This document shows positions 8,950 to 37,876 of a stretch of DNA of 64,000 nucleotides, in pieces (position 1 is the stretch's first letter; each line of letters starts with the position of its first letter). This stretch comes from a virus. The stretch is from positions 32,001 through 96,000 of IMG/VR virus record IMGVR_UViG_3300037086_000474. One strand, written 5' to 3'. The notes under the pieces were generated by a model that searched no databases, had not been told where the DNA came from, and worked only from the letters and a program-made list of their open reading frames with translations. Position numbers and translations under genes: made by a program.

Positions 8950-9242
8950 GAATCGGTTCTTGGGAGATCAAACGAATCGTTCCCAAATGGGCAACTCAAC
9001 GCAACATGTATTGGCGATGTCCTGTTTGCAAAAACATAAGTCGACTTGCTTTTGCAAAAGATGGTAGGACTCTCTTCCAAATCATGCTCGATGAGAAAAC
9101 CACAAAGCTTGACAGCATGACACTCACCTGTGGAACTTGCAAATCGAAGATCACATTCATGGCTGCTGATGAAATTGCTGTGAAGATTGCAGAAATCAAA
9201 GCAGAAGAGCTCGAGAAAGCGTCGGCGTCTGGTGATAACTAA
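8946..9242 (+). CDS. Zn-ribbon hypothetical protein
   Basis: CPVC and CGTC pairs; ATGA overlap with WGR gene. Confidence 0.6.
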   Translation: MRIGSWEIKRIVPKWATQRNMYWRCPVCKNISRLAFAKDGRTLFQIMLDEKTTKLDSMTLTCGTCKSKITFMAADEIAVKIAEIKAEELEKASASGDN

Positions 9243-9411
9243 AGACCTTTCAAAATCTTTAATTTGGCAAGAAGCCAAGCGTCTTTTGGATCCAGAACCA
9301 CTTCTGACTTGTGCGTATTGTAAATATCATTCGCACAACAATTATTGCTTGAAATCATCCAATAGTCAGGAAACTGAAGATGAAGATTCCTGTCAGTATT
9401 TTACCACATAG
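9232..9411 (+). CDS. AKxLL-CxxC family miniprotein (GTG start)
   Basis: EAKRLL..CAYC..C..CQYF. Confidence 0.6.
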   Translation: MITKDLSKSLIWQEAKRLLDPEPLLTCAYCKYHSHNNYCLKSSNSQETEDEDSCQYFTT

Positions 9412-9422
9412 GGGATAGAGAT

Positions 9423-9587
9423 ATGAAGAAACGGGTGTCACTTTCGAAATGGGTTGGAATGAGGATTCTTCATAAACCCAACCGTGGTCTTTCCAAAAAC
9501 CATCAACCACAGCCTTTTACACTTCGCGTTTCAGCCGCCGAACTTGAGCGAAGAATTGAGTCTCTGAGTAAAAGAGACGGGGCATAG
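9423..9587 (+). CDS. 54-aa basic hypothetical protein (not in ORF track)
   Basis: MKKRVSLSKW...SKRDGA, purine-rich RBS, fills gap in operon. Confidence 0.5.
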   Translation: MKKRVSLSKWVGMRILHKPNRGLSKNHQPQPFTLRVSAAELERRIESLSKRDGA

Positions 9588-9766
9588 TGTCTCCATATTT
9601 GATGGCAAAAAATCTTTTAGAGAACAAAAAATGCAAATCTTGCATTGGAACTCTCTATAACTCTGAATGTCCTCTTCATCCTCATCGCCCCCGCGCGGAG
9701 ACATGCTCTTGTTGGGAAAAGAAACCATCGAACACTCCAGAAGAGTATTTTGGTATAAAAGTTTAG
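9587..9766 (+). CDS. AKxLL-CxxC family miniprotein (not in ORF track; start 9587 GTG or 9602 ATG)
   Basis: MAKNLLENKKCKSC...EC...ETCSCWEK. Confidence 0.7.
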   Translation: MSPYLMAKNLLENKKCKSCIGTLYNSECPLHPHRPRAETCSCWEKKPSNTPEEYFGIKV

Positions 9767-9767
9767 A

Positions 9768-9920
9768 ATGAGCGAGGATCAAATTGCAAAGATGCTTCTA
9801 GAGGGAAAGAATTGTGAGACATGTTGGCGTATGGGAGTGGAATGCGGAGAGTCCACTCAAAATATTGATGCCAATTTTGTTTGCAGGAGTTGGGAGGAGA
9901 ATATATTCTTAAAAAAATGA
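9768..9920 (+). CDS. AKxLL-CxxC family miniprotein (not in ORF track)
   Basis: MSEDQIAKMLLEGKNCETC...EC...VCRSWEE. Confidence 0.75.
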   Translation: MSEDQIAKMLLEGKNCETCWRMGVECGESTQNIDANFVCRSWEENIFLKK

Positions 9921-10114
9921 CTGAGGATAAAATCGCCAAAAATCTTCTTGCCAATAAAACGTGTGACACTTGCATGTCATTAGAATGCTCTCGTCATGAT
10001 CACACGGCCGACGACACTTGTGAAAGATGGAGAGGGTCTAGTTGGCAGAAGACATTGCCAAGAAATGGCTTGATGGAACCCTTAGTAGAAGGACCACTTG
10101 GAAAAATCTATTGA
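9917..10114 (+). CDS. AKxLL-CxxC family miniprotein
   Basis: MTEDKIAKNLLANKTCDTC..EC...TCERW; ATGA overlap. Confidence 0.75.
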   Translation: MTEDKIAKNLLANKTCDTCMSLECSRHDHTADDTCERWRGSSWQKTLPRNGLMEPLVEGPLGKIY

Positions 10115-10268
10115 ACCTTACAAACTTGCTAAGATCCTTCTTTTGATGGATGAGAGATCTTGTAAAAACTGCACTAGCGCAGATTGCGGAGCTAACCAAT
10201 ATGAGCCTTTTCTTCAGCAATTTGGAGACTATTTATGTGAAAACTGGGAAAATTTCGACACACCGTGA
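10098..10268 (+). CDS. AKxLL-CxxC family miniprotein (TTG start; not in ORF track)
   Basis: KLAKILLLMDERSCKNC..DC...LCENWE; SD gaagga. Confidence 0.65.
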   Translation: MEKSIEPYKLAKILLLMDERSCKNCTSADCGANQYEPFLQQFGDYLCENWENFDTP

Positions 10269-10269
10269 T

Positions 10270-10298
10270 TTTAGAGCAAATGGACAATAAGTTAGAAT
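10270..10298 (+). promoter_or_regulatory. Sigma70-like promoter of CCA N-half, leaderless
   Basis: TTTAGA-N17-TAGAAT-atgatc-ATG(10305). Confidence 0.8.
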
Positions 10299-10304
10299 AT
10301 GATC

Positions 10305-11057
10305 ATGTTGGAAACCTCTAAAAAGGTGATTGAGACTCTTCGCAAAGCAGGATTTGAAGCCCTGGTCGCTGGTGGAGCGGTCCGGGACATGGTCATGGGT
10401 CTCCAGCCAAAAGATGTAGACATCGCCTCAGATGCCAGTGTGGAAGATATCAAGAAACTCTTCAAAACCATTCCTGTTGGAGAGAGTTTTGGAGTTTGTA
10501 TCGTTCTGGTAGATGGGCATTCCTTCGAAATTGCGCGTTTCCGCGCGGACGGTGAGTATCTGGATGGAAGACGCCCTTCATCCGTGGAGTTTAGCTCGAT
10601 GGAGGAGGATGCGAAAAGGCGCGATCTCACCGTGAATGGTCTTTTCTGGGATCCCACTTCCGACAAGGTGATCGACTTCGTGGGTGGAATGGAAGACATC
10701 AAGGCGGGAAGAATCCGCTTCATTGGCAATGCTCAGTCTCGTATCGACGAGGATCGGCTGAGGATGCTGAGGGCGGTTCGCTTTGCGCTGAAACTGGGGT
10801 TCAAATTCGATCAGAAGGATTTCGAGGTGGTGAAGAGCAACGCGCATCGTATCCACGACATTTCTGCCGAGAGGATCCGCGAGGAGCTGAACAAGATGCT
10901 GCGCATTGGAAAACCTCGTCAGATGCTGGAGATGCTGCGAGACACTGGTCTCCTGAAGGAGATTCTGCCTGAAGTCATGAAGATGATCGACTGTGGTCAG
11001 AATCCCAAGTGGCATCCGGAGGGAGCCCGGGTCCAGAAAATCATTTACATAGATTGA
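10305..11057 (+). CDS. cca: CCA tRNA nucleotidyltransferase, N-terminal half (catalytic head/neck)
   Basis: GGAVRD..KDVDIA, FRADGEYLDGRRP loop, RRDLTVN, EDRLRMLR, SAERIREEL; ends WHPEG+ARVQKIIYID. Confidence 0.9.
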   Translation: MLETSKKVIETLRKAGFEALVAGGAVRDMVMGLQPKDVDIASDASVEDIKKLFKTIPVGESFGVCIVLVDGHSFEIARFRADGEYLDGRRPSSVEFSSMEEDAKRRDLTVNGLFWDPTSDKVIDFVGGMEDIKAGRIRFIGNAQSRIDEDRLRMLRAVRFALKLGFKFDQKDFEVVKSNAHRIHDISAERIREELNKMLRIGKPRQMLEMLRDTGLLKEILPEVMKMIDCGQNPKWHPEGARVQKIIYID

Positions 11058-11063
11058 AAGTAG

Positions 11064-11092
11064 AAACCCCTCGAAAGAGGGGTTTTTTGTTT
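11064..11092 (+). terminator. Rho-independent terminator after CCA N-half
   Basis: aaacccctc-gaaa-gaggggttt plus T tract; stem core identical to 7416 hairpin. Confidence 0.85.
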
Positions 11093-11183
11093 CTTTAATA
11101 AAAGTTATATTTCCGTTTTTCATCATCCATGTCCCTGTTCTAAGATAATACTGAATGCATTCATTTCTATAGGAGGACACAAC

Positions 11184-11564
11184 ATGTCTAGATCTCGTCA
11201 CAGTAGAGAGTTTCAACTCGTTCGCAGTGTTCAAGCAGAAATCATCGTGCTCAAGCAGCAAGTTCTTGATCTGCAGGACAGAGTGGCAGCATTGGATGGT
11301 GCACCAGCACCAACTCCAATCATTCCACCCGTAGTAGATCCAGTAACTCAACCACCTGTTGATCCAGATGTTCATCAGGATCCACCACCACCCGTTGTTC
11401 CTATTACTCCAGTTCCAGAACCAGCACCAACTCCTGATCCGACACCAGTTCCAGCTCCTGATGCTCCTGCCCCTGCGCAAGCTCCAGATCAGCCAGCACC
11501 TGCACCAGCAGTTGATCCAAATGCTCCTGTCCCTCCATCAACTGCAGCTCGCAGAATGAACTAG
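11184..11564 (+). CDS. Coiled-coil + proline-rich protein inserted between the CCA halves
   Basis: RBS aggagg, upstream AAGATAA (11142), A/T-ending codons unlike flanks. Confidence 0.7.
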   Translation: MSRSRHSREFQLVRSVQAEIIVLKQQVLDLQDRVAALDGAPAPTPIIPPVVDPVTQPPVDPDVHQDPPPPVVPITPVPEPAPTPDPTPVPAPDAPAPAQAPDQPAPAPAVDPNAPVPPSTAARRMN

Positions 11565-11587
11565 AAACTAGAGATCACAAGCATAAT

Positions 11588-11611
11588 ATGGGGCCGAAAG
11601 GCCCCATTTTT
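11588..11611 (+). terminator. Rho-independent terminator
   Basis: atggggcc-gaaa-ggccccat plus TTTT. Confidence 0.85.
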
Positions 11612-11637
11612 AGAGCCCATAGCATATATGATAAGAT
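11609..11637 (+). promoter_or_regulatory. Sigma70-like promoter of CCA C-half, leaderless
   Basis: TTTAGA-N17-TAAGAT-atgttc-ATG(11644); -10 box also contains the AAGATA motif. Confidence 0.8.
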
Positions 11638-11643
11638 ATGTTC

Positions 11644-12354
11644 ATGAATGACGAACTGCTGATCAATGGACGCAAAGCAATCCTTGGACCCGTGGAGCCC
11701 TACGATCAGCACAACCCTGATCACAATGACCCTACCAAATATGTCCTCACTCCTGGAGATGTGTGGGAGCACACCATCCGTGTCATGGAGGGGATGGTTG
11801 AGCTGGGCAAGAAGGATGACGATGTGATGATGTGGTCCGTTCTGCTGCACGATGTTGGAAAGCCCGTTGTTTCCACTATTGAGAACGGTGTCATCAGGTC
11901 GAAGGGGCACTCTAAAGCTGGTGCGGAGATCACTGAGGATATTCTGACCAGGCTGAAGTTCTCCAATGACTTCATTGAGTCTGTTCGTGAGATTGTGTAT
12001 GCTCACATGATCCCCTTTGATGTTGATAGGATGAAGAAGTCCACTCTGAGGAAGTTCCTGGCGAGGAAGGACATCGAAGGCCTGATCAACATTGGAATGG
12101 CGGATTGTATGGGAACTGAGGGAAACTCCGAGTTCATTCTGGAGTGGAAGGGTTTCATTGACAAGAAGAGGGAGGAATTCAAGGCTCAGGAACTGCTGCC
12201 CAGGCCCTTCATCACCGGTCGGGATCTGATCGAGCTGGGAATGAGTCCTGGACCCACCTTCAAGAAAATTCTGGGAGAGGTCTTCGACAAGCAGCTGGAA
12301 GGAGAGCTGATCAGCAAAGAGGATGCGATCCATTACGTGAAGAGTAATTATTAG
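11644..12354 (+). CDS. cca: CCA tRNA nucleotidyltransferase, C-terminal half (HD phosphohydrolase + tail)
   Basis: GDVWEHT, LLHDVGK, GHSKAGA, YAHM, ADC, tail ITGRDLIELGMSPGPTFKKIL. Confidence 0.9.
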   Translation: MNDELLINGRKAILGPVEPYDQHNPDHNDPTKYVLTPGDVWEHTIRVMEGMVELGKKDDDVMMWSVLLHDVGKPVVSTIENGVIRSKGHSKAGAEITEDILTRLKFSNDFIESVREIVYAHMIPFDVDRMKKSTLRKFLARKDIEGLINIGMADCMGTEGNSEFILEWKGFIDKKREEFKAQELLPRPFITGRDLIELGMSPGPTFKKILGEVFDKQLEGELISKEDAIHYVKSNY

Positions 12355-12397
12355 AAAAAGCGCAGTGGATTGAAATTGTACCGCATTATTGAAAACC

Positions 12398-12426
12398 AAG
12401 GCCGCTGAAAAGCGGCCTTCTCTTTT
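12398..12426 (+). terminator. Rho-independent terminator
   Basis: aaggccgct-gaaa-agcggcctt plus T-rich tail. Confidence 0.8.
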
Positions 12427-12501
12427 ATCAGTCTGCCATAGCATTTCTCCTAAGCCGCCCGAAAGATAAACAAAACACTACTTTCTCAAATGGGGGAAAC
12501 T

Positions 12502-14064
12502 ATGGCCGTAGATACACTAATTCTTCTTAATGGAAGTACGGGACAACTTGTCATTCCTGATCTTGGAATAGAACTTCCTGCAGGAGATGATCTTGATCTT
12601 CTACAATCATCAGAGGACGAACAACTTTTAGAATCTACTGATCTTTCTACCGCCATGGGAGTTACCGGCGTTACGGTGAAGCTCAATGGTGGTTCGGCGA
12701 TGACATACCAGAACGTCATCGATTATCTACAAAAAATTTCTTTCTATTTCAATCTTGATTATGCCTACATTTCTGGAAAAGATTCTGCCACAGATATCAC
12801 TGGAGCAGAACTAGAGAGATTGACTGATGGGAGTGATGTATCTTCATCACCACAGTTGCATAATCACGACACTAGATATTACACACAGACACAACTTTCA
12901 ACTTCTGGACAATCAACCGTAAATTGGGGCAACATTTCTGGTGCTCCATCTTTTGGATCATTGCATTGGAAAGATCCAGCTGATAGAACAAATGCTGGCT
13001 ATGGTTCTGGCACAATGTTACCACTTACTGGAAATGCCATAGATGATGCTAGGATCGTTACTGATGATGGAGATGGCAAGGCTGCACAGTATGTTTGCGT
13101 GGCGATCTCCGGAGCTTGGAATGTTCAATGGATAAAAATAGCCGATGTCGATTGGGGAAATGCCTCTTCAATTGGGGTAACTCCAAATGGTAATCTAGGA
13201 TCATCTAATGTTCAGGCGGCTCTTTATGAACTGCAAGACGACATTGATGGTTTGTCTCTTGATGAGGCATACAACCGTGGATCATTGATCACTGTTGACA
13301 ATACAAATGTTAATTGGAAATTGACAAGTGCAAAGGTTTTTGAAGTAACTGACTCTGGTGGATCGAATGTTATATTTAGCGTGACTGGTGGAACAACCGG
13401 TGGTTCATTCTATTTCAATGGAACTGTGGCATCCACTATTGGAACAACAGCCGCTAATCTCACAATTTCTACAACAACTTCTGGAACCTTGAATATAAGT
13501 TCTTCTGGTACCTTGAATCTAAAAGATCAATACCTTACTTCAGGTATTCCTCTCAGTGAGAGTGGCGTAACAGGATTAGATGCTTATTTCTCTACTCACG
13601 CAACATCAATCATTGGAGCAATCAACTACTTAGCTGAAAATGTGGCTGGTGGAATGACTATAGTTGATGGCCAACTTTATATCTATGATTCGACTAGATC
13701 AAAACATCTCTCAGCCGCAAATATTGAATATGTTTTTGCAGATCTTAGTACTAAGGGAACCTATCTTGCAATTGGCAACGCACAAGCAACAACGATTGGA
13801 TACAAGCTTCCTACAAAAGCTACAATTATAGGAATTACTGCAATTGCAGACACCGCTGCTGATGGACAACAAATAGAAATACGAAAGAATAGTTCTGCAA
13901 CTCCAGTTGCCACATTCACATTTACTTCACAAGCTTATTCATCTTGGACAACTGATGTAGATCTTTTAGCTGGAGATATTCTACAAGCATTCTCCACTTG
14001 GTCAAGTGGAAGTCCAATCAAAAATGTGGTTGTTAGTGTATACGTTCGCTGGCGTACACCTTAA
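12502..14064 (+). CDS. Virion fibre-like protein (N-terminal 'DLGIELP' domain, HNHD motif, C-terminal YD..R.KHLS domain)
   Basis: Shared modules with 15383, 19059, 26743, 28857; AAGATAA at 12463. Confidence 0.65.
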   Translation: MAVDTLILLNGSTGQLVIPDLGIELPAGDDLDLLQSSEDEQLLESTDLSTAMGVTGVTVKLNGGSAMTYQNVIDYLQKISFYFNLDYAYISGKDSATDITGAELERLTDGSDVSSSPQLHNHDTRYYTQTQLSTSGQSTVNWGNISGAPSFGSLHWKDPADRTNAGYGSGTMLPLTGNAIDDARIVTDDGDGKAAQYVCVAISGAWNVQWIKIADVDWGNASSIGVTPNGNLGSSNVQAALYELQDDIDGLSLDEAYNRGSLITVDNTNVNWKLTSAKVFEVTDSGGSNVIFSVTGGTTGGSFYFNGTVASTIGTTAANLTISTTTSGTLNISSSGTLNLKDQYLTSGIPLSESGVTGLDAYFSTHATSIIGAINYLAENVAGGMTIVDGQLYIYDSTRSKHLSAANIEYVFADLSTKGTYLAIGNAQATTIGYKLPTKATIIGITAIADTAADGQQIEIRKNSSATPVATFTFTSQAYSSWTTDVDLLAGDILQAFSTWSSGSPIKNVVVSVYVRWRTP

Positions 14065-31800: not shown

Positions 31801-32899
31801 TTTGGTCTCTATCTAAATAGGCACCACAGCTGGGACAATTCCAACTTCTTTCCTGCAGCATCAAATCCTTTTTTACATACCCACAACTCGAACAAGTTTT
31901 ACTGGATGCAAACCACTTGTCCGCTTGAATGAGTGTTTTATCATTCCATAGTGTTTTGTATTTTAGTTTCTGTACGAACGTTGCATATCCAAGATCTGAT
32001 ACTGATTTTCCAAGTTTTAGTGCCTGTTTCATTCCGGCAAGTGATAAACTTTCTACCACTATAACATCATATTCTTTTACCAGTCTCAAACTCAATTTGT
32101 CTATGAAATCTAGTCTCTGTCGTGCAATATGCTCATGAATTTTAGCTAATCTAATTCTAGCTTTTTCTTGATTTTTACTTCCGTTGATTTTCCGAGAGTA
32201 TTGTCTTTGTTTTTTAGCTAGAACAGCTTGTGAGTTTCTGTAATGTTTCGTATATTCCGGTGAATTCCCATATTGATCTACATAAAACTTGTCCAATGAA
32301 CAATCGAGTCCAAGAACTTTTATATCTTGATCTAAGATTTGATGGCCTTTGAAATCTTGTTCTCCTTTGAACAAAATGGAAGCAAAATATTTTCCAGATG
32401 AAGTTTTTGTAATCGTTATGTTTTTGACTTCTGCCTCATAGAACCATGGTTTTATCACCCTATGTCTGAAGTTTATGGATTTTATTTTAGGTAACTTTAT
32501 CGTTTTTTCATTCAAGTTGATTTCAGAGCGCATTGTTCTATACGAACAAGTGTGTTTTTTCTTTTTGAAATTAGGATATCCAACTTTTTGCCCCTTTCTC
32601 ATACCTTTTAAAGATTTGAAAAAGTTCATATAAGCTATTGATAGGTCTATTCTAGATTGTTGAAGAGCGACGGCATCCGCCTCTTCCAACCATTCAAACT
32701 CTTTTTTATAATCCTTTTCAGTTTTATGTTTATGTTTGTAGAGTTCAACTTTATTATTTTTCAGACGTTCATATGTTTCAATTCTCTCTGCCAACATCTG
32801 ATTGTACAGAAATCTACAACATCCAAGAGTTTTATTGATCTGAATTTGTTGCTTTGAAGTAGGGTAAATTCTGACTTTTAGAGATCTATTTATGTTCAT
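31646..32899 (-). CDS. tnpB: RNA-guided endonuclease TnpB (IS200/IS605-type), no TnpA
   Basis: KVRIYPT..GCCRFLYN HTH; RuvC LGLD, VVESL, DRDQNA; CSSCG/CPSCG Zn finger. Confidence 0.92.
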   Translation of the reverse strand: MNINRSLKVRIYPTSKQQIQINKTLGCCRFLYNQMLAERIETYERLKNNKVELYKHKHKTEKDYKKEFEWLEEADAVALQQSRIDLSIAYMNFFKSLKGMRKGQKVGYPNFKKKKHTCSYRTMRSEINLNEKTIKLPKIKSINFRHRVIKPWFYEAEVKNITITKTSSGKYFASILFKGEQDFKGHQILDQDIKVLGLDCSLDKFYVDQYGNSPEYTKHYRNSQAVLAKKQRQYSRKINGSKNQEKARIRLAKIHEHIARQRLDFIDKLSLRLVKEYDVIVVESLSLAGMKQALKLGKSVSDLGYATFVQKLKYKTLWNDKTLIQADKWFASSKTCSSCGYVKKDLMLQERSWNCPSCGAYLDRDQNAGTNLANYGIKQLGMEPPEVKPVEKKTSRSKRLVPSHASMKQENVIARLQ

Positions 32900-36385: not shown

Positions 36386-37876
36386 CTATTTCTTTACAAA
36401 AACACTATTACCACAGTCCCATATTCTATCCCAACCATTCAATTGCATGTTTTCCCATTCAGTCAACTTTGGATTAAAGATTTTCAGTTTTTTGGATAAT
36501 TTGTGCTTCTGGAATTCAATTCTGTTGAATCTATGAGTGTAGTCAGTGTAATAATAGCTTGGGGAAGAATTTTCCATTTCAATGAAGCCGTTTTTTGAGT
36601 AGGTAGATCCTGAGAAGTATCTTTTGTCACAATAACTTATAATGCTTTTTGGATGATATTGTGTTTCGAAATATTTGAGCAATCTCGAAAATCCTCCCAT
36701 GATCATCATGTCTTTCTTATTACAAAATCTCGTGATCTCCCACTCATATTTTTTGTTGAATCTTGGTTTAGAAAGACTCAACAGAGAAACCAATTTGCCC
36801 TTGTGACGGAGACCAATATGAATTTTTCCAGCAGTAAATCCTTGGAGATGATTTGTATCAACGAAAACTCTAGCTTCTTCACTAGAAATCTCATCTATGA
36901 TGCAGCTTCTGGCACCAATTTTTGAGGTGGTTAGACCCATGATTGTTCGAATAATTGATTCTACTATTTCTCTTTTCTCAATCCATTCATCCTCAAAAAT
37001 ATGAATCAATTTGATTCCATGTTGTTCGCAAAGATTAGTTTTCTGAAGATGTCCAGTTTTGTTTCCGCCATTCAGTTCTGAATGCCAATAGATGCCATCG
37101 AACTCTATAGCTAATTTATGTTTTGGAAGATAAATGTCGAGTTCATATGGTGGTATAATTTTCTTAGTGTTTTCTTCTATAGAAGAAATGGAAAGTTGTT
37201 TCACAAAATCAACAACCTGTTTTTCAACAAGAGAACTTCCATTTTGTTTTGGAAAACAGATTGGGCATCGGGGAAGAGTGCCGTTGGCGTAGTAAAACTG
37301 AAAAACGGTATTACAGGTGATACATCTCCAATCAAACTTTTGGTATTTTTCCTTTTTATCAAGATATTCTTGTAGATTAAAAAGAGGAACAACTTTATCG
37401 AATGTTTTGAATTTGAGATATGAATTCTTCAACTTTATTTTTTTATATTTAGGATTATTGAAATTTGTTTCAATACCATATCGAGTCAACATGGTCTGTT
37501 TCTTTTTTTCCTTGACACCCACTATTTGAGAAGGGTTATCTACACCATATTTTTTTTGAATTCCTTGTTTGATTCTAGAAGAAGCATTAGCTGATCCATA
37601 TTTAGCTATTTTAGTAATCGTAAAACCACATTCTCTGCAGAGAATCTCTTCTTCAAAAAATTTAGAGTTAGAATTGAATTTTTCAGTTTTCTTCTTTTTG
37701 CAATGATGACAGATATAAACTATCTGATCTCTTTGTTTGATTGGATAGATTTTATTGACTAGGAGTGTTTGAAATTTTTTCAGACGACAGATTTGTTCAC
37801 TTTTTTCTATCGATTTGACCTTAATGTGCTTACTGAATATGATTACTTCTAATACCATTAATATAAAATATGCCAA
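36386..37876 (-). CDS. Free-standing Hef-like homing endonuclease (Vsr/PD-(D/E)XK core, Zn fingers, KYGV repeats)
   Basis: KYGVDNPSQ, YELDIYLP..AIEFDGIYWH, IHIFEDEW, GARSC, NHLQG, RIWDCG; opposite strand to neighbours. Confidence 0.75.
   Translation of the reverse strand: MAYFILMVLEVIIFSKHIKVKSIEKSEQICRLKKFQTLLVNKIYPIKQRDQIVYICHHCKKKKTEKFNSNSKFFEEEILCRECGFTITKIAKYGSANASSRIKQGIQKKYGVDNPSQIVGVKEKKKQTMLTRYGIETNFNNPKYKKIKLKNSYLKFKTFDKVVPLFNLQEYLDKKEKYQKFDWRCITCNTVFQFYYANGTLPRCPICFPKQNGSSLVEKQVVDFVKQLSISSIEENTKKIIPPYELDIYLPKHKLAIEFDGIYWHSELNGGNKTGHLQKTNLCEQHGIKLIHIFEDEWIEKREIVESIIRTIMGLTTSKIGARSCIIDEISSEEARVFVDTNHLQGFTAGKIHIGLRHKGKLVSLLSLSKPRFNKKYEWEITRFCNKKDMMIMGGFSRLLKYFETQYHPKSIISYCDKRYFSGSTYSKNGFIEMENSSPSYYYTDYTHRFNRIEFQKHKLSKKLKIFNPKLTEWENMQLNGWDRIWDCGNSVFVKK

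Follow-up and report, generated by a model that had tools for sequence, protein, structure and literature searches.

The window analysed here is a stretch of 64,000 nucleotides (positions 32,001 to 96,000) of the viral record IMGVR_UViG_3300037086_000474, which has 112 kb in IMG/VR and a completeness estimate of 54%. It carries on its plus strand a predicted class II CCA-adding enzyme, a tRNA-repair enzyme, that is encoded in two pieces by two genes with a third, unrelated open reading frame (ORF) between them (Table 1). The first gene, which we call the N-half, has Pfam matches to the head domain PolyA_pol (PF01743, 4.6e-34) and to the neck domain PolyA_pol_RNAbd (PF12627, 6e-19), and the second, the C-half, matches HD (PF01966, 2.5e-12) and the tail domain tRNA_NucTran2_2 (PF13735, 1.3e-07). 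An original prediction, made from the letters of the sequence alone, had stated that both halves retain the catalytic motifs, and the domain matches and alignments agree with it. GGAVRD, DVD (motif A), RRD (motif B) and EDRLRMLRAVRF (motif D) are invariant across the N-half alignment, which identifies the head and neck as those of a class II enzyme, and in the split C-halves H43, H69, D70, K73, H89, H121 and D154 are invariant, which gives the H...HD...H...D signature of the HD phosphohydrolases. In whole class II CCA enzymes the HD body and the tail grip the tRNA, and ends with a 2',3'-cyclic phosphate are healed. The two genes resemble the single-chain class II enzymes, both the bacterial Cca and those of phages (PHROG 2244), in their domains, domain order and catalytic motifs. 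The single-chain enzymes, however, are one polypeptide with an uninterrupted HPEGDVWxH motif, whereas here the body and the tail are carried by a second protein.

The break lies inside this motif. The N-half ends in ...KWHPEG followed by ARVQKIIYID and a stop codon, and the C-half, read from its second ATG (11644), begins with MNDELLINGRKAILGPVEPYDQHNPDHNDPTKYVLTP-GDVWEHT, with an arm of 37 aa preceding GDVWEHT. The GGA codons at the two borders (11022-24 and 11755-57) are spaced by 733 nt, and the two ORFs are in different frames. In the nearest unsplit viral homolog, L001 (49% identical), the junction is FHPEGDVWNHT, and the nearest whole proteins are about 50-57% identical. The original prediction had read the broken junction, the position of the GGA codons, the 733-nt gap and the change of frame correctly, and the promoter box and terminator that it had assigned to each half are also present. 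Its account of the gap was right as to length and frame, but the gap also holds a 126-aa ORF; in order, it comprises a hairpin, this ORF, a second hairpin and the promoter box of the C-half. Searches of the middle ORF against Pfam, PHROGs and the Atlas, as well as a homolog search, found nothing similar, and the ORF is single-copy in this phage record. No endonuclease or remnant of one was found in the gap, so a free-standing endonuclease like that of the fractured gene of Aeromonas phage Aeh1, to which we return below, is missing from this locus. The GC-rich codon usage noticed in the original prediction agrees with the base composition: both halves and the middle ORF have values of 0.48-0.55 against 0.37-0.44 in the flanking genes. 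The higher G+C of positions 10300-12350 would be compatible with a fairly recent acquisition of the whole locus.

Table 1. Features of the split CCA locus and promoter-like boxes of the same class, in coordinates of the window
Feature	Position	Strand	Remarks
Promoter-like box TTTAGAG-N16-TAGAAT, N-half	10270..10298	+	Second ATG 6 nt past the -10 box
N-half gene, class II tRNA nucleotidyltransferase head and neck	10299..11057	+	252 aa; 250 aa from ATG 10305
Tail ARVQKIIYID, predicted strand 1 of the clasp module	11025..11054	+	Equals strand E252-256 in the model of unsplit P0019
Terminator-like hairpin 3' of the N-half	11062..11087	+	11-pair stem, then T run
Orphan 126-aa ORF, helical N-terminus, rest Pro/Ala-rich	11184..11564	+	AGGAGG 8 nt ahead of the ATG
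G+C-rich hairpin and T run, likely terminator of the middle ORF	11588..11607	+	Adjoins the next promoter box; read from the sequence; the hairpin listing gave this stem in minus-strand orientation only (11607-11588)
Promoter-like box TTTAGAG-N16-TAAGAT, C-half	11609..11637	+	Motif scan
C-half gene, HD phosphohydrolase body and tail domain	11638..12354	+	238 aa; 236 aa from ATG 11644
37-aa arm: predicted clasp-module strands 2 and 3 and an additional N-terminal strand of 12 aa	11644..11754	+	
Terminator-like hairpin 3' of the C-half	12398..12419	+	
Boxes of the class TTTAGAG-N16-TAnnAT, positions listed	7443, 10270, 11609, 48840, 57368, 59232, 63749	+	

The split at this place (site 1, between HPEG and DVWxH) is found in other sequences, with a tail on the first piece and an arm on the second, which together we call the module. 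When the C-half was searched against 1.84 billion representative proteins, the best 150 representatives included 11 C-halves of 226-244 aa that carry the arm, and in these the arm residues L14, G15, H27 and Y33 are nearly invariant, as are the HD residues. The search with the N-half yielded 13 further proteins of 247-261 aa, all of which end in a common short tail just past H[PSMK]EG; the pattern is H[PSMK]EG-[AS]x[VI][RQK]K..., with examples such as ATVQKIIYD, ATVRKITYVD, SRVRKKIYL and ARVRKILA. In three IMG/VR loci (L005, L009 and L010) an N ORF and a C ORF adjoin each other in this order, 41-130 nt apart. Their tails are ATVQKIIYD or ATAQKIICD, their arms have the form M[KR]LGPxxxYDPNNPEH..KY, and the C-half starts at M[KR]LGP behind a Shine-Dalgarno sequence. 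The closest relative of the window genes retains both halves on one contig of 732 kb, with an N-half that is 78% identical (P0152) and an arm that is 98% identical (P0276). In another locus, L087, the matching split at site 1 has a homing-endonuclease gene between the halves. Tail and arm are unique to the break and missing from the plain unsplit homologs, as are the tails of Aeh1. The module is specific to viral or metagenomic CCA genes. Among GenBank phages a DNA search found no match, and protein searches found plain homologs only, at 33% identity or less and none of them with the module. Two arm-pattern scans of 185,579 species genomes found no cellular copy, a weak negative in view of how narrow the patterns are, and the arm motif has no other occurrence in this phage record.

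The original prediction had proposed that the two arms may together make up a small inserted domain that holds the halves together as a heterodimer without an intein, and it had pointed to unsplit homologs with such an insert as a way to recognize it. Such homologs were found, among them P0014, P0019, P0026, P0116, P0318 and P0324, in which tail and arm stand in frame between HPEG and DVW; the junction of P0014, for example, is HPEG-ARVRRICIGLGPFEKLDLNNPEHFDPTKYKMYP-GDVLEH. In the AlphaFold2 model of P0019 (mean predicted local distance difference test, pLDDT, 91.9) the insert is a three-stranded beta meander (strands 252-256, 262-267 and 281-284) with a short turn at DNPE, and the split point of the two-piece forms maps to its first hairpin turn (257-261). 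This is the inserted domain that had been foreseen. A model of the complex, built from the N alignment (A3) and the C alignment (A2), had a score of 0.82, and the best of 3 controls had 0.00. This mark is reached by 58 of 80 solved complexes and by 2 of 110 mismatched pairs, counts that are only rough because our own alignments were used. At least 98% of the contacts agree between runs, the pLDDT of the partner is 87 or more, and the interface takes in N residues 238-252 and C residues 4-46, which include the tail and the arm. As single-chain CCA enzymes have been solved, the model may pass partly by its likeness to those structures. It indicates that the halves can be placed as they are in the whole enzyme, which is a statement about placement and not about binding. 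With a complex model that passes its controls, a negative intron search and no residues of the intein type at the junctions, the predicted heterodimer without an intein stands as the model has it.

The distribution of the module over the CCA genes is scattered. In a tree of the C-bodies (97 rows, with the arms left out) the 13 split rows need 12 changes, at least 11 of which are forced by well-supported (starred) branches. Split and plain forms stand beside each other (L005/L007, P0002/P0021, P0004/P0013, P0007/P0008+P0024 and P0006/P0090), and the split P0016 groups with the insert-bearing P0014 and the plain P0030. An approximately unbiased (AU) test rejected a single clade of all 16 module-bearing rows (difference in log-likelihood, lnL, 494.5; p 2.6e-68). 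The tree of the N-bodies needs 9 changes for 15 rows. As far as the junction, the split N-half P0157 shares 89% identity with the plain P0171, and so does P0170 with P0175. Furthermore, among 42 C-halves the mean identity of the arm core is 58%, compared with 32% for the body, and in some pairs the arms are 77-86% identical on bodies that share only 20-29%. The scatter on both trees, the 89%-identical pairs and the difference between arm and body point to a module that diverged CCA genes acquired or exchanged with one another. A DNA alignment of the split L005 with the plain L007 was too diverged to define the borders of an insertion. The original prediction spoke of a maintained fission rather than decay. 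Tails and arms are in fact conserved over dozens of protein clusters, and the motifs are kept; as one vertically inherited fission, however, it did not hold, and by these comparisons the module evidently moves or recombines between CCA genes.

The same pair of tail and arm is also found at another place of the enzyme. In four loci obtained by a search with the arm only (L091-L094), it spans a break that interrupts the catalytic head. The pieces there are ...FRQDSYQKIKGVRKIIEK, followed by a stop, and MKLGPLEPYDPNNPDHKNPEKYIIIYDSTGRRP..., and the HPEG-VWDH region is intact. This second site lies between FRxD.Y and GRRP, and about 20 protein clusters are split there in addition to the four loci. 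An arm-profile search of 5.8 billion proteins gave 60 hits, every one of which is a piece of a CCA enzyme: about 40 are C-halves of site 1 and about 21 are fragments of site 2. Four hits of about 192 aa are middle pieces that open with the arm and close with HPEG and the tail, as expected for enzymes in three pieces; for one of them, P0298, and for the C-half P0309 the same longest-contig figure is listed (43,422 bp). Mixed forms are also present, such as P0271, which is split at site 2 and has a continuous insert at site 1, and P0302, whose site 2 holds an in-frame copy of the module. In P0277, P0282, P0302 and their relatives, CCA proteins of the site-2 clade (A10 columns 318-350), site 1 has an extra loop of 5-7 aa, HHPEA-YEQGDG-SVFDH, which replaces the full module.

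Several of the split points are occupied by endonuclease genes. The one in L087 holds a DUF7487 protein that matches a PHROG family of homing endonucleases. In L093 (2026-3842) the slot contains a GIY-YIG endonuclease in truncated form, with IS200-type TnpA and TnpB after it, and reads as one mobile element nested in the slot of another. The split point of L094 contains a 295-aa zinc-finger ORF without an assigned family. CCA genes split with different, cysteine-rich tails were seen in L016 (1408-4103) and L080 (3354-4989). In L016 the N piece ends in ..THDYSCKNFEPKKR and a stop, the C piece starts with MNKTMCNKCKWFEGHCIHPEGEC..DGRRP, and a DUF7487 endonuclease gene lies in the gap on the opposite strand; these tails look like a second kind of clasp, perhaps a split zinc ribbon. 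In the window itself, a 496-aa ORF (36386-37876, minus strand) resembles the DUF7487-type homing endonuclease of the L016 gap (tblastn 1.9e-12), so endonuclease genes of that family are present in this phage at another locus.

The anatomy of the sequence, the conservation of the module, its phyletic scatter and the interface obtained in silico are what the analysis shows. We consider it likely that the two genes of the window give a functional class II CCA-adding enzyme in two pieces, the halves of which would be clasped by a split module that is mobile and associated with endonucleases. A foreign module of about 36-47 aa would stand between HPEG and DVWxH and contain the break, so that piece 1 ends in the first beta strand of the module (ARVQKIIY) and piece 2 opens with the rest of it (..AILGPVEPYDQHNPDHNDPTKYVL). 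On association of the halves, these strands would form one small beta sheet that clasps the enzyme at the break, and neither RNA splicing, protein splicing nor ribosomal bypass would play a part. Regarding its history, an endonuclease cassette with module-coding flanks would have invaded a plain gene; in relatives, the endonuclease genes nest at the first turn of the module. After decay of the endonuclease, adjacent halves would remain, and sometimes an in-frame re-fusion would leave an insert. In this phage the slot would now be occupied by an unrelated small gene, and each half would be under a leaderless-type promoter of the same class. A broader proposal, which we regard as possible and put forward tentatively, is that tail and arm are a self-contained and laterally mobile protein adapter, a portable split beta meander that is intein-like without splicing and that accompanies homing endonucleases of several families or serves as their target. 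By means of it the enzyme could be broken at the motifs that are conserved best, within the catalytic fold as well and at two places per gene, with its function kept, and could heal to an in-frame insert once the endonuclease is lost.

Some points weigh against a clasped, mobile enzyme with this history. We infer the binding of the halves and the activity of the enzyme, and likewise the order of events. The gap of the window contains no endonuclease, and the cassette history at this locus therefore rests on its relatives; the split may also predate the endonucleases instead of having arrived with them. Gain of the module by homing and its loss by recombination with plain alleles are not distinguishable. 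The group used for the AU test had been named after the tree was seen, though it is defined by an independent trait. At the second site, the AlphaFold model of the in-frame P0302 has a pLDDT of 25-43 over head and insert, too poor to give a fold.

An alternative is that each half is an enzyme by itself, the first a minimal nucleotidyltransferase and the second an HD phosphohydrolase that stands alone; the two would not associate, and tail and arm would be leftovers of a linker. The break at a domain border, the start of the HD domain, would fit this, and so would the promoter and terminator of each gene and the third gene between them. We find it unlikely all the same, since a leftover would hardly be better conserved than the body (58% vs 32%), fold as one sheet in the model of the unsplit P0019 or take part in the interface of the complex model. 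Moreover, the same pair spans a break within the catalytic head, the fragments of which could not function on their own, and it is textbook knowledge that whole class II enzymes bind the tRNA through their body and tail. Independent function of the halves is possible at site 1, but it leaves the conserved clasp unexplained. Quite improbable, and more so than separate enzymes, is an old, vertically inherited insert of a CCA clade that broke apart in several separate events and was deleted exactly on many occasions, without any mobility. Continuous and split forms do both exist, and the turn of a surface beta hairpin is a permissive place for a break of the chain. This history, however, demands at least 11 exact deletions, each of them restoring HPEGDVW, and it leaves unexplained the presence of the same module at a second site, the arms of 77-86% identity on bodies of 20-29% identity, and the endonuclease genes at the split points.

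The sequence evidence led us to reject decay and any joining of the halves by an intron, a split intein or a ribosomal bypass, and we assign each of these two explanations only a minimal probability. A gene recently broken by an insertion and on its way to a pseudogene would account for a gap that holds an unrelated ORF with its own signals, but both frames are intact with all their motifs, the architecture recurs at 36-78% identity in many contigs, and the closest relative has kept both halves. As for joining, GGA codons are found at both borders, as between the take-off and landing codons of a gene-60-type bypass, and inteins and introns favour conserved motifs such as this one. Nevertheless, Rfam intron families had no match in 9800-12800 at E values up to 1, the gaps of the relatives measure only 41-130 nt, and in L009 the whole insert comes to no more than about 140 nt. 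A split intein would have Cys or Ser as its first residue, His-Asn at its end and Cys, Ser or Thr at +1, but here the tail starts with Ala, Ser or Gly, and the arm ends in varied residues without His-Asn that are followed by Gly or Asp; in addition, tail and arm total 36-47 aa, far under the size of an intein, whose fold has about 130 aa. A bypass is contradicted by the first GGA, which has no stop codon beside it and is followed by ten conserved sense codons that indicate a translated tail, and by a gap of 733 nt, compared with about 50 nt, that contains terminators and a gene.

To our knowledge, the ribonucleotide reductase of Aeh1 is the only case in which tails that reassemble a gene fractured by a mobile element have been shown by experiment. 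It is also the published case closest to a clasped two-piece CCA enzyme. In both, the gene of an essential-type phage enzyme is cut at a conserved site and both pieces have unique tails, which are thought to have come with the insertion of a homing endonuclease; the pieces are made as two translation products and come together with neither RNA nor protein splicing, a reassembly that is predicted in our case and experimental in Aeh1. The host gene here is a CCA-adding enzyme, however, and the gap of the window has no endonuclease. Furthermore, we are dealing with one sequence-conserved module in dozens of lineages and at two sites, with continuous and three-piece enzymes as well, and with a predicted shared beta sheet instead of a pair of charges. 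Charge pairing of the tails as in Aeh1 was considered and rejected as a general principle: the charges are inconsistent between loci, and the arm of L005 is basic. In the Aeh1 arrangement NrdA-a / mobE / NrdA-b, the enzyme is active only with the tails that mobE brought in (Crona et al. 2011, PMC3045599). Its authors suggested that tails may be a general way to neutralise gene fragmentation, and expected them to be idiosyncratic and hard to find by similarity (PMC3045599). The mobA / gene 60 cassette of T4 (topoisomerase gene 39/60) is comparable in that a mobile endonuclease cassette splits an enzyme gene with tail-like extensions (PMC3045599); unlike gene 60, the window has no 50-nt bypass element, and its GGA codons are not a take-off and landing pair. 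With fractured genes that contain split inteins and a free-standing endonuclease (Dassa et al. 2009, PMC2677866), the CCA loci share the layout half-endonuclease-half in phage-like metagenomic DNA and peptide extensions that dock together at the break, whereas the extensions of the CCA pieces total 36-47 aa, lack splicing residues and are kept in the product.

If tail and arm work as proposed, one recognisable module present in many phages would offer a natural series on how selfish endonucleases invade essential genes harmlessly, and with a size of about 40 aa it would be a compact candidate for a tag in protein fragment complementation. In annotation, the two genes should be read as subunits of one tRNA-repair enzyme instead of under the separate labels "poly(A) polymerase" and "HDIG protein".

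Another aspect to mention is the expression of the locus. The motif TTTAGAG-N16-TAnnAT has 8 sites on the plus strand of the window, against 0.77 expected, and in 7 of the 8 an ATG that opens an ORF of 72-260 aa lies 5-6 nt past the -10 box. This class of boxes suggests a set of leaderless phage mRNAs. Because of this spacing in 7 of the 8 boxes, the mRNAs of the N-half and C-half are probably leaderless, with true starts at 10305 and 11644; these starts give proteins of 250 and 236 aa, the lengths recorded for the library proteins P0151 and P0001. The middle ORF has a Shine-Dalgarno sequence (AGGAGG) in place of a leaderless-type start. Immediately upstream of the N-half, at 9232-10268, there is a run of small Cys-rich ORFs.

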